Part shown: positions 2-10,688 of the stretch, in pieces | Layout: each line of letters opens with the position of its first letter | How positions within the stretch are numbered: the stretch's first letter is position 1 | Virus record (IMG/VR): IMGVR_UViG_2695420822_000015 | DNA length: 10,688 nucleotides | Origin: a virus | Taxonomy: Duplodnaviria; Heunggongvirae; Uroviricota; Caudoviricetes | Strand: one strand, 5' to 3' | The notes under the pieces: generated by a model | Database searches by the model: none | What the model was told of the DNA's origin: nothing | Seen by the model: the letters and a program-made list of their open reading frames with translations, nothing else | Program-made: the position numbers and the translations under genes

Positions 2-220
2 AGTCATCGGGCATTATCTGAACATAAAACACTACCAATAAGTTGGAGTCATTACCAAACGGTTGAAATGTATGCCGCTACTTACGGGTCCTGTAATCCT
101 CTGAATAAACCAGAGGGAAAAGATGATTTCGACAAAATTTACCGCTTCTTGGAGGACCGCTATATCAAAAGCTTAGAGGACGCAGGGATCAAATCCCCAG
201 TGAAGTCACCATTGTCCTGA
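2..220 (+). CDS. Hypothetical protein, 5'-truncated at window edge
   Basis: Frame is open from position 2 to TGA at 218-220 (73 codons, ...DDFDKIYRFLEDRYIKSLEDAGIKSPVKSPLS*). Absent from the ORF track because the only internal ATG (pos 68) gives under 60 aa. Convergent 32-bp overlap with 189..566(-). No recognisable family. Confidence 0.25.
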   Translation, partial: SHRALSEHKTLPISWSHYQTVEMYAATYGSCNPLNKPEGKDDFDKIYRFLEDRYIKSLEDAGIKSPVKSPLS

Positions 221-566
221 GAACTTGCAGAACGTCATGATCATAACTTCCATCCAAACCGCGACGGCGAATTGCTTCTCGTATTACCGGAAGCAGTTCG
301 CTGGAAATCTCGGTGCATATTTCACCTGATAATACGCTTGGCTCAAGTGAGAATATTGGTGAACTTACGGTCTTGGTCTCGACAGTTTCAGAGTCAGTGC
401 CAACATTATAAAGCTCAACGAAAGCGGTCTTGATTTTCCGGGCCAGATCTTTTGCTGGCTCGCTTGCAATATCTTTCCCGATTTCTCGCAGCACAGAATG
501 CAATGTATGAGCTGCTGTTTTCTGTACATCAGACGGTAAATCTTTAAATTCCATCGTCAGCCTCAT
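189..566 (-). CDS. Hypothetical phage early-left protein (125 aa)
   Basis: ATG start; its start overlaps the stop of the upstream gene 566..772 in an ATGA arrangement on the minus strand (translational coupling). Lies leftward of the OL-like operators as expected for a PL-type operon. No family recognised. Confidence 0.5.
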   Translation of the reverse strand: MRLTMEFKDLPSDVQKTAAHTLHSVLREIGKDIASEPAKDLARKIKTAFVELYNVGTDSETVETKTVSSPIFSLEPSVLSGEICTEISSELLPVIREAIRRRGLDGSYDHDVLQVLRTMVTSLGI

Positions 567-2870: not shown

Positions 2871-3935
2871 ATGGCTAACGCCTGGCTCAGATTATGGCAT
2901 GACATGCCAAATGACCCTAAGTGGCGAACAATTGCCAGGGTGTCAGGGCAGCCAATTGCAACAGTGATGGCAGTGTATATCCACCTCCTGGTGAGCGCGT
3001 CACGAAATGTCACGCGAGGTCACATTGATGTCACGACAGAAGATTTGGCAAGTGCGCTCGACGTGACAGAAGAGGTAATTGATTCAATTTTGCAGACGAT
3101 GCAGGGGCGGGTACTTGATGGTGATTTAATCACTGGATGGGAAAAACGCCAGGTGCTTAAAGAGGACAACGGCAATATTTCGCAAACCGCAAAATCTCCT
3201 GCAGAGCGCAAGAGGGCGCAGCGAGAGAGGGAAAGAAAGCGGGAACAAAATGGCGATTGTCACGGCGCGTCACGAAATGTCACGCACATGTCACGACGAG
3301 TCACGACAGATACAGATAAAGATACAGATAAAGAAGATCAAAACACTATGGTCCATGGCGTAAAAAACGCCACGAACCAGGCAGGGGATGTTCAGACCGT
3401 CAATCCTGGTCAGCCAGCAGGCTCGACACCGGAAGCCGATTCAGCGTATGCGCTGAAAGCCGATTCGGGCGCTGTGCAGCAGGTGATGACCGCAAGGCCG
3501 GAGCAATCACTCCAACTGCAGCAGCCTGAAGCCGATTCCGCCATTCAGCGGGAAGCCGATCGGGTAGCCCCGGAAAACACCGGGCAGCCTGTGGGACGAG
3601 TGGATTATCCGGATGTGTTCGAACAGGTCTGGCGGGAATACCCGTTGCGTGCCGGGGCAAACCCGAAGAAATCCGCATTCAGTGCCTGGAAGGCCAGATT
3701 GCGCGAGGGGGTGCCACCAGAGACCATGCTGGATGGTGTGAGGCGTTACGCGAGATACCTGGCGGCGACCGGGAAAGCGGGAACGGAATTTGTTCAGCGA
3801 GCGACGACGTTTTTTGGGCCGGACCGGAATTTTGAAAACCCCTGGTTGCTCCCGGTAAGCGGCACGAACAACCAGCGTTGTGTGAATCATATTTCTGAAC
3901 CGGATACCGAAATTCCGCCGGGATTCAGGGGGTGA
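2871..3935 (+). CDS. Phage replication initiator / replisome organiser (lambda O-like, YdaU-like)
   Basis: Lies directly upstream of the dnaC-like gene. Contains iteron clusters in its coding sequence, as lambda O contains ori. Low-complexity acidic/Pro/Gln-rich linker in the middle. SD GAGG 5 nt before ATG 2871 (track start GTG 2865). Confidence 0.7.
   Translation: MANAWLRLWHDMPNDPKWRTIARVSGQPIATVMAVYIHLLVSASRNVTRGHIDVTTEDLASALDVTEEVIDSILQTMQGRVLDGDLITGWEKRQVLKEDNGNISQTAKSPAERKRAQRERERKREQNGDCHGASRNVTHMSRRVTTDTDKDTDKEDQNTMVHGVKNATNQAGDVQTVNPGQPAGSTPEADSAYALKADSGAVQQVMTARPEQSLQLQQPEADSAIQREADRVAPENTGQPVGRVDYPDVFEQVWREYPLRAGANPKKSAFSAWKARLREGVPPETMLDGVRRYARYLAATGKAGTEFVQRATTFFGPDRNFENPWLLPVSGTNNQRCVNHISEPDTEIPPGFRG
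2999..3035. repeat. Iteron cluster 1: four GTCACG/GTCACA copies phased about 10 bp apart
   Basis: GTCACG at 2999, 3009, 3030 and GTCACA at 3019; an inverted copy CGTGAC at 3062-3067. Helical-turn phasing. Confidence 0.5.
3259..3332. repeat. Iteron cluster 2 (five GTCACG copies) plus 12-bp tandem repeat; candidate phage origin
   Basis: GTCACG at 3259, 3269, 3279, 3290, 3300 (spacing 10-11 bp). The 19-mer GCGTCACGAAATGTCACGC occurs at both 2997-3015 and 3268-3286. Immediately followed by perfect tandem GATACAGATAAA x2 (3309-3332), an A+T-rich patch. Confidence 0.55.
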
Positions 3936-3941
3936 TGTGGC

Positions 3942-4719
3942 ATGAAAAACATTGCGGCAGCCGGGGTTCTTGAACGTATTCACAGACTTGCACCACAGGG
4001 GGCGGTTCCACCGTACCGGACGGTGGAGGAGTGGCGGGGGNNNNNNNNNNNNNNNNNNNNNNNNNNNNGAATGGCAACTTGCTGAAGGACGAAAACGCAG
4101 CGAGGAGATTAACCGCCAGAATCGCCAGTTGCGGGTGGAAAAAATCCTGAATCGTTCGGGCATCCAGCCTCTGCACAGCAAATGCTCGTTTGCGAATTAT
4201 CAGGTGCAGAACGACGGGCAAAAATACGCGCTGAGCCAGGCCAAATCCATAGCTGACGAACTGATGACCGGGTGCACGAATTTTGTGTTCAGCGGTAAAA
4301 CCGGCACCGGGAAAAATCACCTTGCAGCGGCGATGGGTAACCGGCTGATGGCGAAGGGGCGCAGCGTGATTATCGTCACCGAGTCTGATGTCATGAGCGT
4401 GTTGCATGACAGCTACGACAACGGCAAATCCGGTGAAAAATTTTTACAGGAGCTTTGTGGTGTTGACCTGCTGGTCCTGGATGAAATTGGCATGCAGCGG
4501 GATACGAAAAACGAGCAGGTGGTACTGAACCAGATTGTTGATCGCCGGACGGCATCGTTACGCGGTGTGGGGATGCTGACAAATATTAACCATGCAGCGA
4601 TGAATACACTTCTCGGCGAGCGGGTGATGGATCGCATGGTCATGAACGGCGGGCGCTGGGTGAATTTTAACTGGGAGAGCTGGCGTCCGAATGTTAGCCA
4701 TTCGAGGGTTGTTAAGTAG
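3942..4719 (+). CDS. DnaC-like helicase loader (phage replication protein, AAA+/IstB-like), interrupted by assembly gap
   Basis: Walker A FSGKTGTGKNHLAAA, Walker B DLLVLDEIG; C-terminal LGERVMDRM closely resembles E. coli DnaC. ATG 3942 (MKNIAAAGVLERIHRL...) lies 6 nt after the O-like stop. The track's TTG 3952 start is in another frame and is an artefact of the 28-N gap. Confidence 0.8.
4041..4068. other. Assembly gap (28 N) inside the dnaC-like gene
   Basis: Run of N; gap length is not a multiple of 3, so the reading frame across it is undefined. Confidence 0.95.
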
Positions 4720-4750
4720 TTTCAGGAGGATTTATGGCGAAACCTTTTAN

Positions 4751-5154
4751 ATCACTTAGCGGCAGCTATCGGGAATCGCCTGCTGAAAGACGGTCAGACA
4801 GTGATTGTGGTTACCGTGGCTGATGTTATGAGCGCCCTGCACGCCAGCTATGACGACGGGCAGTCAGGCGAAAAATTTTTGCGGGAGCTGTGCGAAGTGG
4901 ATCTGCTGGTTCTTGATGAAATTGGCATTCAGCGCGAGACGAAAAACGAGCAGGTGGTGCTGCACCAGATTGTTGATCGCCGGACAGCGTCGATGCGCAG
5001 CGTGGGGATGCTGACAAACCTGAACTATGAGGTGATGAAAACATTGCTCGGCGAGCGGGTGATGGATCGCATGGTCATGAACGGCGGGCGCTGGGTGAAT
5101 TTTAACTGGGAGAGCTGGCGTCCGAATGTTAGCCATTCGAGGGTTGTTAAGTAG
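4751..5154 (+). pseudogene. Second, 5'-truncated copy of the dnaC-like 3' region (fragment; likely chimeric join)
   Basis: Starts in-frame at ..NHLAAAIGNRLLKDGQ.. right after a single N (4750) that interrupts the start of the downstream gene (ATGGCGAAACCTTTTA, 4735-4749). Segment 4610-4749 is identical to 5045-5184. Confidence 0.6.
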
Positions 5155-5168
5155 TTTCAGGAGGATTT

Positions 5169-5353
5169 ATGGCGAAACCTTTTACTCCCGAACAGCGGGA
5201 AGAACTGAAGACGCGAATTGTGGAACTCGTGCATCAGGACGGTCGGGTCACGATTCGGCAGTTGTCAGATGAAACAGGTATCAGTCGTGCGTCTGTCGGT
5301 CGCTTATGCATAGAACTGGTCGCAAGTGGTGATGTATATAATTCTGGCTACGG
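5169..5353 (+). CDS. Hypothetical winged-helix-like protein, 5' portion only (truncated at N 5354)
   Basis: RBS AGGAGGA then ATG 5169 (MAKPFTPEQREELKTRIVELV...GISRASVGRLCIELVASGDVYNSGY). Reading frame is broken at the N junction, where sequence switches into a dnaC fragment. Confidence 0.5.
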
Positions 5354-5354
5354 N

Positions 5355-5599
5355 TCCTGGATGAAATAGGCATTCAGCGGGAGACGAAAAACGAGCAGGT
5401 GGTATTGCACCAGATAATTGATCGCCGGACAGCATCACTGTGCAGTGTCGGGATGTTAACAAACCTGAATCATGCCGCAATGAGCACGCTTCTTGGTGAG
5501 AGGATTATGGACCGCATGACCATGAACGGTTGTCGGTGGGTGACGTTTAACTGGGATAGCTGGCGTTCAAATGTCAGCTTTCCGGGAGTTGTGAAGTAA
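5355..5599 (+). pseudogene. Third, 5'-truncated dnaC-like 3' fragment (divergent allele)
   Basis: Encodes ..LDEIGIQRETKNEQVVLHQIIDRRTASLCSVGMLTNLNHAAMSTLLGERIMDRMTMNGCRWVTFNWDSWRSNVSFPGVVK*. Begins immediately after N 5354. C-terminus differs from copies 1 and 2. Confidence 0.6.
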
Positions 5600-6501: not shown

Positions 6502-6564
6502 NNNNNNNNNNNNNNNNNNNNNNNNNNNNNNNNNNNNNNNNNNNNNNNNNNNNNNNNNNNNNNN
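6502..6564. other. Assembly gap (63 N)
   Basis: Run of N. Confidence 0.95.
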
Positions 6565-6998: not shown

Positions 6999-7055
6999 GT
7001 GAAATTAGCTATCAGGCTTCAATTACCGCTGGCATTCGCATCAAAGGAGAGGAGC

Positions 7056-7412
7056 ATGGAAATAAAACCAGAAGATGAGTTAAGCAATATTGTTTTATTT
7101 CCGGTAAAAGAGGATAACCCTCGTAATCAGGTTAATTTTCTTTATGAGCCATCGGAAAGACCATATTGCCATCACGCCTCTGTCCGGGTTGACGAAAAAG
7201 AGCGTCAGGTCCGCTGTAAAATTTGCGGTGCAGTTGTGGAGCCATTTGACTGGATGCTCTCTGTGGCGAAAAGAGAAACCAGACTGGCAGATGATGTAAG
7301 GCTCTTGCGCCAGGAGGAGCGGGAAAGGCGAAAAAATATAGAAAAGCTAATCCAGATTGAGCGTAATGCGAAAGCGCGGATACGCAGGGTGACAAAATAT
7401 AGCCCCGAATAA
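7056..7412 (+). CDS. Hypothetical zinc-ribbon-like protein (118 aa)
   Basis: Strong SD GGAGAGGAG before ATG 7056. Motif Y-C-H-H...(14)...C-K-I-C suggests a Cys/His metal-binding knuckle. Basic, Arg/Glu-rich C-terminal tail that may be helical. Confidence 0.55.
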   Translation: MEIKPEDELSNIVLFPVKEDNPRNQVNFLYEPSERPYCHHASVRVDEKERQVRCKICGAVVEPFDWMLSVAKRETRLADDVRLLRQEERERRKNIEKLIQIERNAKARIRRVTKYSPE

Positions 7413-7551
7413 TCAAGGTTATTTCTGGAAGTCAAGTCGTGAGTGATGAGGACTAACAAATACGGTGAACTCGATAAAGAGATTCAGGACGAACTGGAGG
7501 CCAGGAATGATTGACAAATCACCAAGTGAGTTCAGCTACAAAGATTTATTG

Positions 7552-7567
7552 TCATAACGGGTTATGA
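7552..7567. promoter_or_regulatory. Perfect 16-bp palindrome TCATAACGGGTTATGA upstream of the methyltransferase gene (possible operator)
   Basis: 7-bp arms around a 2-bp centre, 60 bp upstream of ATG 7627. A consensus -35 hexamer TTGACA lies at 7511-7516. Confidence 0.35.
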
Positions 7568-7626
7568 GATCGACTTGGTGCGTGATATTCTTCGGGCCAG
7601 TTTGCTATGCGCCACCATGAGATGTT

Positions 7627-9459
7627 ATGGCCCGCATGTTTGATACATTAGGATTTTACATTATGAATGTGCAACATTTTGATTTTTTTACAGATAATGA
7701 GTTTTCTAATCTGGAAAGATATCAAACTTGTAAAGCCATGGCCAAAGGTTATGCGGGCAATTACAAAACCGGGCAGTCAAGGTTGATGCATGCCCGCTCA
7801 TACTGCTTCAGCATCGTAGCTGCATATTGGGATACCCTTGCAAAAAAGCAAAAAAGCAGCATTAAAATGAGGGCAGTACCGCACACTGTTTACATAGAAG
7901 ACATTCCATGTGATGCACGCGAGCTCGCTGAACGAACAGGTGAGCTTATTGCTCAATTTCCGGCGGAGGACGCTGGATATCTGATTGGGTCAATTTATAC
8001 GGTAATGCTGCCATCCGCTTACCGTTCGGAATTGGGGGCTTACTATACCCCCCCACCTTTGGTAGCGCGTCTCTTGGACCTGGCTGAAAAGTCTGGTGTT
8101 GATTTTTCTCATGCATCGGTTATTGATCCTGCGTGTGGTGGCGGTGCATTTTTGGCACCAGTAGCCATTCGAATGTTAAAAAAAGACAAGGGGCCTTCCC
8201 CTGAATGGATGTTGAGGAGAATCAGTCGTCGTTTAAAGGGGATAGAAATCGATCCATTTGCGGCTTGGATGAGTTTGGTATTGCTCGAATCTGTACTAAT
8301 GCCACTATGTGTAAAGGTAAAACGTAGATTGCCTGAAGATACAATTATTGTTGCTGATGCGCTTCAGCAAGATAAATTTTCTGGTTATGATCTTGTGGTA
8401 GGGAATCCGCCTTACGGACGTGTCACTCTCGATATTAAAACGAGAGAAAAATATTCTCGTTCGTTATTTGGTCATGCAAATCTATATGGATTGTTCACCG
8501 ACTTAGCTGTTCGCATGGTTAAAGAGAAAACAGGAGTTATTGCATTTCTTACGCCAACTTCTTTTCTTGGTGGGCAGTATTTCACCGCGCTGCGAACCCT
8601 TTTGACCGAAAAAACTACTCCGTATGCCCTTGATTTCGTCACTGACAGGGATGGGGTCTTTGACGATGTTCTCCAGGAAACAATGTTGACAGCATTCAAG
8701 GCGGGAGAACATAAAGTTCGGGCCCAGGTATCCTCACTTGTCCCTAAGGGGTTGAACAAAGCAAAAATTGAGAAAATAGGTAATGTTGATATAGAAAAAG
8801 GTGGAGCAACGTGGCTTTTGCCACGCGTTAAAGATGATGCCTGTTTTCTTAATGTATTAAAACAGATGTCTACGCGTTTAGCTGATCTGGGATACTCAGT
8901 CTCTACAGGTCAGTTAGTCTGGAATCGATTTAAGTCGCAGTTGCGTACGACGAAAGGAAAAAATAGCTACCCATTAGTCTGGGCGGAATCAATAACTTCA
9001 GCTGGTTTTCGTTTTAGTGCAGACAGAAAAAATCATGTTCCCTATATCGATATAACCCCACAACAGGGTTTCCTTGTGACAAAATCTGAATGTGTGCTTG
9101 TTCAGCGGACAACATCGAAGGAACAGGACAGAAGGATTTTAGCGGCAATTTTACCTCAGGGATTTATAGATGAAACTGGTGGCGTAGTAGTTGAAAACCA
9201 TATTAATATTGTATATTCAAACGGATTGTTCTCTGCGGTTCGCCCTGATGTTATTGATATGCTACTTAATTCGCATGTTGTCGATCGGGCGTTCAGGTGT
9301 ATAAGCGGAAGTGTTGCTGTTTCGGCCTATGAATTGAATTCAATCCCGTTGCCTTCTCTGGAGCAGGTGATGGAGATTCAATCGTTAATTGATGCTGGCG
9401 TCCACAGACGGATTATTGAGAGAACTATCGCTGGTTTCTATGGAGTGATGATTGCATGA
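7627..9459 (+). CDS. N6-adenine DNA methyltransferase, gamma class (Eco57I/TaqI-like motif order)
   Basis: Motif X GAYYTPPPLVARLLDL, motif I IDPACGGGAFL (SAM binding), motif IV VVGNPPYG, in the order X-I-IV. About 130-aa N-terminal extension and about 280-aa C-terminal region (presumed target recognition). AT-rich codon usage. Start could be ATG 7627, 7636 or 7663. Confidence 0.85.
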   Translation: MARMFDTLGFYIMNVQHFDFFTDNEFSNLERYQTCKAMAKGYAGNYKTGQSRLMHARSYCFSIVAAYWDTLAKKQKSSIKMRAVPHTVYIEDIPCDARELAERTGELIAQFPAEDAGYLIGSIYTVMLPSAYRSELGAYYTPPPLVARLLDLAEKSGVDFSHASVIDPACGGGAFLAPVAIRMLKKDKGPSPEWMLRRISRRLKGIEIDPFAAWMSLVLLESVLMPLCVKVKRRLPEDTIIVADALQQDKFSGYDLVVGNPPYGRVTLDIKTREKYSRSLFGHANLYGLFTDLAVRMVKEKTGVIAFLTPTSFLGGQYFTALRTLLTEKTTPYALDFVTDRDGVFDDVLQETMLTAFKAGEHKVRAQVSSLVPKGLNKAKIEKIGNVDIEKGGATWLLPRVKDDACFLNVLKQMSTRLADLGYSVSTGQLVWNRFKSQLRTTKGKNSYPLVWAESITSAGFRFSADRKNHVPYIDITPQQGFLVTKSECVLVQRTTSKEQDRRILAAILPQGFIDETGGVVVENHINIVYSNGLFSAVRPDVIDMLLNSHVVDRAFRCISGSVAVSAYELNSIPLPSLEQVMEIQSLIDAGVHRRIIERTIAGFYGVMIA

Positions 9460-10538
9460 ATCTGCCTGTTGTTCCCCCATTGAATGTTATCCGGGAAAGA
9501 TTACAATTAATTTTCCCTGAAGGGACTGAGAATCGTGGATATTTAATTCGGGAAATAGCTGCAAAAACAATTTTTGTCATGTTTTATGCTGGTGCGGTTG
9601 AGGGGCTGGGGCGATGGATAAGGCCCAGCCAGGTTGTAAGTATGGGAGATTCGCAGGCTGCTCTTACTGATGATGCGTCCAGAGAAAGCTGGGTAAAGAT
9701 GACTTTCTCTAAACAAAAGATAAGGCCTGCTGATGCATGGTATGCGGAAAATACGCGTGAGCCAATACGTGATGAAACTATAAAAAATGGCCTAATACCT
9801 TGCAATGCAATTGTTGAGCGTAAAGGTATACCCACCACATCCTCTCGTCCTCGTTACAGTTTGAATCGCTCTTTTGCAGCACTCTTTGATGCCGGGCTTG
9901 AAGGAGATTCGCTGCTGAGTGCAATAAGTTCCTGGCAAGAAAATCATTTGAACAAAGCCGCTCTTGCTAGGTTGCGTTTATTGAAATCAGGGGCAGTGAT
10001 TGCTGCTGATGCCGTAGTCGTCACTTTCCCAAATGGAGAGAAGAGAACTTTAGCTCCGGGCCCGTCAAGTACAATAGCTAAGGCCGTCATCGAAGTTTTT
10101 GCTCCTAATTTTCTTAAGAATCCAACTGTGCTCTGGTTGTCTGAATCCGGGAATAAAGTTGTTGCTCAGGATGATGTATTGGCAAAAGCATTGGGGCTGA
10201 ATATTGATGCCTCAAAAGCACTTCCAGATATTATTTTGATTGATTTGGGAGAGGACCGAACGGGTTCGGACATGCTTGTAGTTTTCACTGAAGTAGTTGC
10301 GACAGATGGGCCTATAAACAGGGAACGAAAAGTTACTCTCACTCATTTGGCTATTGACGCTGGGTTCAGCGAGAAAAATCTTGCATTCCTTACGGCATTT
10401 ATGGACAGAAGTGCTCTGCCTTTTAAAAAGGCAATACCAGAATTGGCGTGGGGATCTTATGCATGGTTTGCTTCTGAACCGGAGCACTTAATTGATCTTC
10501 GGGATGGTTATCCGGTAAAGATCAGCCAGAGAAAATGA
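9456..10538 (+). CDS. MTase-coupled partner protein (360 aa); putative restriction endonuclease or other effector, family unassigned
   Basis: ATG overlaps the MTase stop (ATGA 9456-9459); GGAG about 10 nt upstream. Same AT-rich composition as the MTase. No Walker motif, HNH or clear PD-(D/E)xK triad identified by eye; candidate acidic cluster IDLGED...FTEVV. Confidence 0.55.
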   Translation: MNLPVVPPLNVIRERLQLIFPEGTENRGYLIREIAAKTIFVMFYAGAVEGLGRWIRPSQVVSMGDSQAALTDDASRESWVKMTFSKQKIRPADAWYAENTREPIRDETIKNGLIPCNAIVERKGIPTTSSRPRYSLNRSFAALFDAGLEGDSLLSAISSWQENHLNKAALARLRLLKSGAVIAADAVVVTFPNGEKRTLAPGPSSTIAKAVIEVFAPNFLKNPTVLWLSESGNKVVAQDDVLAKALGLNIDASKALPDIILIDLGEDRTGSDMLVVFTEVVATDGPINRERKVTLTHLAIDAGFSEKNLAFLTAFMDRSALPFKKAIPELAWGSYAWFASEPEHLIDLRDGYPVKISQRK

Positions 10539-10688
10539 CCAAAGTTTGATATCCGCCACGCCCTGAAGGATGGGGGTTTTACGGTGCACTGGATAAAAAA
10601 TCGGTTTCATAGATTTGCCCACCGTGGTATACGCCTGCGATAAAAACTTTATTGTCATCAACGGCAAAAGCAATAATTGTTCTGTGGC
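10488..10688 (-). CDS. Hypothetical ORF, 5' end beyond window; doubtful
   Basis: Minus-strand frame is open from the window edge to the stop at about 10488. It overlaps the 3' end of the 9456..10538 gene by 51 bp (convergent). No family recognised. Confidence 0.2.
   Translation of the reverse strand, partial: ATEQLLLLPLMTIKFLSQAYTTVGKSMKPIFYPVHRKTPILQGVADIKLWSFSLADLYRITIPKIN

Follow-up and report, generated by a model that had tools for sequence, protein, structure and literature searches.

A prophage-borne gene pair of Escherichia coli, very probably an ordinary type II restriction-modification operon of the PstI/BsuBI/SdaI family

Two adjacent genes in the window, the whole 10,688-nucleotide stretch of DNA analysed here, very probably make up an ordinary type II restriction-modification (R-M) operon of the PstI/BsuBI/SdaI type, which a lambdoid prophage carries as cargo (Table 1). 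The upstream gene is assigned to the DNA methyltransferase (MTase) and the downstream gene to the restriction endonuclease (REase), and the reading draws on family membership, fold, conservation of the active-site signature, gene order and prophage location. In the original prediction the REase had been singled out as possibly a novel effector, for instance a sensor or a component of abortive infection; its SdaI-type homology and fold and the name it already carries in RefSeq do not support this. What had been named at that time as counting against novelty, a confident profile match to a known family of restriction endonucleases whose catalytic signature is conserved, is what was found.

Table 1. 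Features of the predicted R-M operon and of its REase.
Feature	Residues	Position in window	Strand	Evidence
Cognate DNA MTase gene, 610 aa, gamma-class N6-adenine		7627-9459	+	Pfam, PADLOC, motifs
ATGA overlap, REase start (9456-9458) over MTase stop (9457-9459)		9456-9459	+	Sequence, gcATGAat
REase gene, 360 aa, BsuBI/PstI/SdaI family		9456-10538	+	ATG-to-stop ORF; two Pfam domains
N-terminal winged-helix DNA-binding domain of REase	10-172			PF17728
Candidate recognition helix of winged-helix domain	98-113	9747-9794	+	N99-(S/T)100-R101-E102-x-x-R105
C-terminal PD-(D/E)XK-type nuclease domain of REase	188-349			PF06616
Active-site segment, the acidic patch PDIILIDLGEDRTGSDMLVVFTEVVATDG of the original prediction	257-285	10224-10310	+	Family alignment

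The REase carries both domains of the BsuBI/PstI/SdaI family, in order and above the Pfam gathering score of 27 bits that applies to each: the helix-turn-helix domain PF17728 (106.6 bits, E 1.2e-30) and the nuclease domain PF06616 (152.2 bits, E 9.3e-45). These scores contradict the earlier view that no nuclease core can be made out in the REase. Pfam gave no domain beyond these two and NCBIfam gave no match to the REase. In PADLOC the type II REase model PDLC03589 matched the protein over its full length (E 2.8e-128, model positions 3-350 of 364), and all PADLOC matches were to R-M models. SdaI (PDB 2ixs) is the only solved structure with significant sequence similarity to the REase (E 1.8e-16). 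The protein is identical, residue for residue, to RefSeq WP_001053102.1, which is named "BsuBI/PstI family type II restriction endonuclease"; a literature search for WP_001053102 or for the MTase accession WP_000113425 returned no paper naming either. Judged by its sequence and its modelled fold, the REase is a normal member of the known BsuBI/PstI/SdaI family, and its existing RefSeq name is correct. Searched exhaustively with HMMER, 1.84 billion cluster representatives yielded 1004 relatives at E values up to 0.001. The clade to which the REase belongs (the query clade) is maintained at 63-89% identity across Enterobacterales, Burkholderia, Pseudomonas and others, with both domains always present.

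Structure prediction, which the original prediction had called for, points to the same family. Two AlphaFold models of the REase were obtained, the first, built from 17 close homologues, with a moderate pLDDT of 72 and the second with a pLDDT of 84. A Foldseek search of the PDB with the first model returned SdaI as the only significant match (E 4.4e-15, probability 1.0), and the REase model has the SdaI-type fold, in which a winged-helix N-terminal domain is joined to a PD-(D/E)XK-type C-terminal domain. The overall rmsd between the model and the SdaI crystal structure is large and the relative domain orientation differs; the large value arises because the two domains are placed differently in the model, not because the fold is different. 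The modelled core consists, in order, of helix 203-219 (with E213), hairpin 223-230/234-238, strand 259-263 preceded by P257-D258, strand 274-281 carrying E279, and helix 289-301 beginning with R291-K292. The model thus has the alpha-beta-beta-beta-alpha arrangement that is usual in the core of PD-(D/E)XK nucleases.

Regular-expression checks agreed with the original prediction that the REase has no Walker A, HNH-like spacing or GIY-YIG motif. The acidic patch PDIILIDLGEDRTGSDMLVVFTEVVATDG is also present and is not followed by a lysine, since it reads E279-V-V-A282 and the E-x-K arrangement is absent. This patch had been named as the best candidate for a nuclease motif, and it is itself the PD...E core of the family's variant PD-(D/E)XK site. 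P257-D258 opens one beta strand, and E279 sits in the next and is followed by V281-x-(T/S)-x-G285-P. Among the aligned family members D258 is kept in 186 of 188, as is E279, and G285 in 185 of 188. The strict PD-(D/E)XK motif, with a Lys two residues past the second acidic residue, is not found in the REase, where that position is V281; the same canonical position is Val in 178 of the 188 aligned members. In the alignment to SdaI, D233 corresponds to D258, E248 to E279 and K251 to A282, the SdaI residue numbers having been counted from the printed alignment. By this alignment numbering, D233, E248 and K251 are taken as the catalytic residues of SdaI.

The residues at these positions vary by clade. 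Position 281 is Val in 65 and position 282 is Ala in 50 of the 73 near-full-length representatives of the query clade. The SdaI fragment retrieved 114 proteins, of which 112 have Val at position 281; at position 282, 94 have Thr and only 13 have Lys, the latter being the SdaI/SbfI group. This subclade is marked by E-A-V-K, with Lys at the SdaI K251 position, and the REase was not filed in it because A282 replaces that residue. The 317-residue PstI-like enzyme of a Stx2a-converting phage reads MPDVVL...LLLVESVTSHGPVDGKRH and likewise has no lysine after the Glu. Migration of the K residue in the R.SdaI subfamily is described in the classification paper of Orlowski and Bujnicki (PMC2441816). On the evidence of these alignments the absent lysine is a trait of the whole family and, being family-wide, provides no evidence for inactivity or a new function of the REase. 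The suggestion of a divergent restriction enzyme therefore survives in part: the protein appears to be a restriction endonuclease with a non-textbook active site, but the departure is a known hallmark of the BsuBI/PstI/SdaI family and not of this protein alone.

The active-site signature sought for the family comprises a Glu on the first helix, a P-D pair opening strand 2, E-x-V-x-(S/T)-x-G-P on strand 3 and an invariant Arg with which the next helix begins. It is complete in the REase (E213, P257-D258, E279-V-V-A-T-D-G285-P286 and R291), and its columns are conserved at 97-99% over 188 sequences. The REase matches all fourteen columns found to be invariant in the two clades (W79, R101, E102, R105, P257, D258, E279, V281, G285, R291, L295, R318, W332 and W337), and it also keeps the near-invariant E213 and K234. 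The conserved basic residues able to provide the missing positive charge are K209 (92% K/R), K234 (89%), R291 (98%) and R318 (98%). Presumably a basic residue from elsewhere in the fold stands in for the textbook lysine, the conserved candidates being K209, K234 and R291. K251-S-K253 of SdaI is replaced by A282-T-D284 in the query clade and by T-(T/S)-H in most PstI-like proteins, so that K251 and K253 of SdaI are A282 and D284 in the REase. Residues 282-284 represent a clade-specific charge reversal beside the catalytic Glu, which may reflect different ways to complete the active site.

The Ala at the SdaI K251 position and the Val at the canonical Lys position could also be taken as signs that the REase is a catalytically dead relic, leaving the MTase as a solitary prophage methylase and the 360-residue protein as, at most, DNA-binding. 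Decay of this kind does occur in the family. In Escherichia phage ArgO145 a PstI-like REase (3824-4778 of the examined locus) is annotated as frameshifted, with in-frame stops, beside an intact MTase, a case of REase decay leaving a solitary phage methylase. We nevertheless regard this fate as improbable for the gene studied here, which is of full length, matches its PADLOC model over positions 3-350 of 364 and keeps every family-invariant residue. Its Ala and Val are the majority state of the clade and not private mutations, the clade has been maintained with both domains across the range of bacteria given above, and distant relatives still have the ATGA-coupled M-R pair.

The MTase matches the Pfam families Eco57I (E 1.7e-13) and N6_Mtase (E 3.6e-09) and, over its full length, the PADLOC MTase_II model PDLC03338 (E 7e-300); M.TaqI is its best solved relative (E 3e-08). 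It contains a SAM-binding IDPACGGG motif at residue 166 and a catalytic NPPY motif at residue 260 and is therefore assigned to the gamma-class N6-adenine methyltransferases. The corresponding RefSeq protein, WP_000113425.1, from which the window MTase differs at two positions, is named "HsdM family class I SAM-dependent methyltransferase". An adjacent cognate N6-adenine MTase, a mark of the family, is thus found directly upstream of the REase, and the ATGA shared by the two genes fits a single operon whose genes are translationally coupled. A conjugative Burkholderia pyrrocinia plasmid, whose REase is 67% identical, and metagenome contigs bearing a 41%-identical REase also have M before R with overlapping ends. 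When 7300-10688 was scanned for promoters and terminators, promoter-like sites were fewer than in shuffled sequences and nothing useful lay upstream of the MTase. A small ORF just upstream of the MTase (6999-7412, + strand) weakly matches a zinc-ribbon family (PF08271, E 2e-4, short of the cut-off) and corresponds to a 118-residue hypothetical protein in the complete genome.

R.SdaI (2ixs; CCTGCAGG, isoschizomer SbfI) is about 22-29% identical to the REase and has 323 residues compared to 360. A megablast search of the R-M region against the phage collection gave no match, and the distant PstI-like pairs of Stx phages emerged only with tblastn. The PstI-like pair of a Stx2 phage has a REase 26% identical (E 4e-22) and a MTase 25% identical (E 7e-27) to those of the window, and both window genes are therefore co-homologous with an established R-M pair. 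Like the window pair, the Stx-phage pair has the M-then-R order, is carried by E. coli lambdoid prophages and has no lysine after the catalytic Glu. It belongs to a different clade, with a REase of 317 and a MTase of 489 residues compared to 360 and 610 (the window MTase is about 120 residues longer than the MTases of PstI-like pairs), and it adjoins cI, whereas the window pair follows replication and DUF977 genes. The PstI-like clade was represented by 312-318-residue proteins without names and by the Stx2a phage enzyme, and none of the hits was identified by name as PstI or BsuBI. EcoGIII, the PstI-like enzyme type of Stx2 phages, is reported to restrict lambda-like phages (PMC6602927) and to cut CTGCAG. 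Judging from the published papers, the Stx2a-phage pair compared here is probably the EcoGIII orthologue.

It is very improbable that the 360-residue protein is a specificity subunit, sensor or abortive-infection effector merely lying beside the MTase, a role for which one could cite only the missing textbook E-x-K lysine. The protein is homologous over its full length to a type IIP restriction enzyme of known crystal structure (SdaI) and shares its fold; further arguments against such a role are its lack of additional domains, its PADLOC matches to R-M models only and the co-homology of both genes with the R and M of the Stx2-phage pair.

In the 840-residue PADLOC model PDLC03359 the window REase matches positions 595-831 and the window MTase positions 315-498, so the two window genes correspond to two halves of a single-chain relative. 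The match to this model indicates that fused single-chain M-R relatives exist; these form one chain, whereas the window has separate genes that appear to be translationally coupled. YenI of Yersinia enterocolitica is a fused M-R protein.

In the AlphaFold model the helix at residues 98-113 is followed by strands 119-121 and 134-136, and it is the likely recognition helix because a beta hairpin comes next. R101, E102 and R105 are invariant in the 73 query-clade representatives and in the 114 SdaI/PstI-like proteins, and the core N-(S/T)-R-E-x-x-R is common to the query clade and the CTGCAG cutters. The model thus suggests a role for this helix in base recognition. Position 106 is Asp in the query clade compared to Arg or Lys in the SdaI/PstI-like clade, and position 110 is Arg compared to His. 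The candidate helix fits a CTGCAG-related site without establishing one, and the number of CTGCAG sites in the window (2, with 2.6 expected) says nothing either way on specificity. A more tentative proposal, to which we give a little less than an even chance, is that the clade of about 360-residue E-V-V-A-(T/S)-D-G-P proteins with about 600-residue Eco57I-type MTases recognises a site other than CTGCAG or CCTGCAGG, and that its active site is perhaps completed by K209, K234 or R291, a position undescribed in the family. If correct, this would represent a new specificity and a further case of catalytic-residue migration. The recognition sequence of the clade is apparently uncharacterised and could interest enzyme collectors.

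For the conventional R-M operon we infer enzymatic activity, residue roles, a recognition sequence and a biological benefit as follows. The MTase would add an N6-methyl group to an adenine in the recognition sequence of host and prophage DNA, and the REase would bind the same sequence, when unmethylated, via its N-terminal winged-helix domain and cut both strands with its C-terminal Mg2+-dependent PD-(D/E)XK-type domain. D258 and E279, together with E213 on the first helix, would be the acidic catalytic residues and would bind Mg2+. Through the ATGA overlap, REase synthesis would be coupled to MTase synthesis. Restriction of incoming unmodified phage and plasmid DNA would benefit the lysogen, and a post-segregational penalty on its loss together with methylated progeny would benefit the prophage.

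From 7400 to 10688 the window shares 99.9% identity with the E. coli FDAARGOS_943 chromosome and 99.3% with strain VL7S7; among 5426 complete E. coli genomes, only these two contain most of the query. In the complete genome the R-M pair lies inside a lambdoid prophage integrated next to potC. The prophage begins with integrase, excisionase, exonuclease and dicB, followed by the repressor/Cro region, a replisome organiser and a DnaC-like ATPase, then DUF977 and a small hypothetical gene. The M and R genes come next, followed by a convergent RelE/ParE-ParD pair, DUF968, RusA and Q, and then tRNAs, lysis, terminase and head genes. The pair is accessory cargo, situated between replication genes and Q with toxin-antitoxin modules on both sides, and the prophage is a recent acquisition.

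Several other features of the window belong to this setting. A ParE toxin/PaaA2 antitoxin pair (998-1482, - strand) lies beside the immunity region, and a second RelE/ParE-family toxin gene (10579-10688, - strand) converges on the REase gene and runs off the end of the window; in the complete-genome locus it occupies 15180-15491 and is followed by a ParD antitoxin. Addiction modules thus surround the R-M pair. The immunity region has divergent CI-like (1502-2032, - strand) and Cro-like (2087-2377, + strand) genes followed by a YdaT-family protein (2374-2799, + strand), the usual arrangement in Rac-like lambdoid prophages. Identity to the reference prophage is about 94% at the immunity region and 99% from 6720 onward, and the element is therefore mosaic. 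Between 3950 and 6620 the window is a gapped scaffold, with runs of N at 4041-4068, 4750, 5354 and 6502-6564. This part holds three DnaC/IstB-like C-terminal pieces (3952-4719, 4801-5154 and 5399-5599) and two DUF977-like starts, and within it 4366-4749 matches 4801-5184 at 87% identity; in the complete genome the DnaC/IstB-like and DUF977 genes are each present once. The region looks like several lambdoid prophage variants strung together by the assembler and not like real tandem genes.

Mobile elements commonly carry members of the family, which were found in 182 plasmid records and 98 phage records, mostly of Stx converting phages; the family is also present in SGI1-related islands (PMC9035990). 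For the window itself the analysis removes a false lead, as the supposed novel defence effector is read here as a standard restriction enzyme; motif reading failed because the BsuBI/PstI/SdaI family does not have the textbook lysine. The importance of this result is little beyond correct annotation. Prophage-borne R-M pairs of the PstI family can reshape the methylome of their host and exclude other phages, as reported for EcoGIII in Stx phages, and the rarer pair described here may act likewise on methylome and phages.
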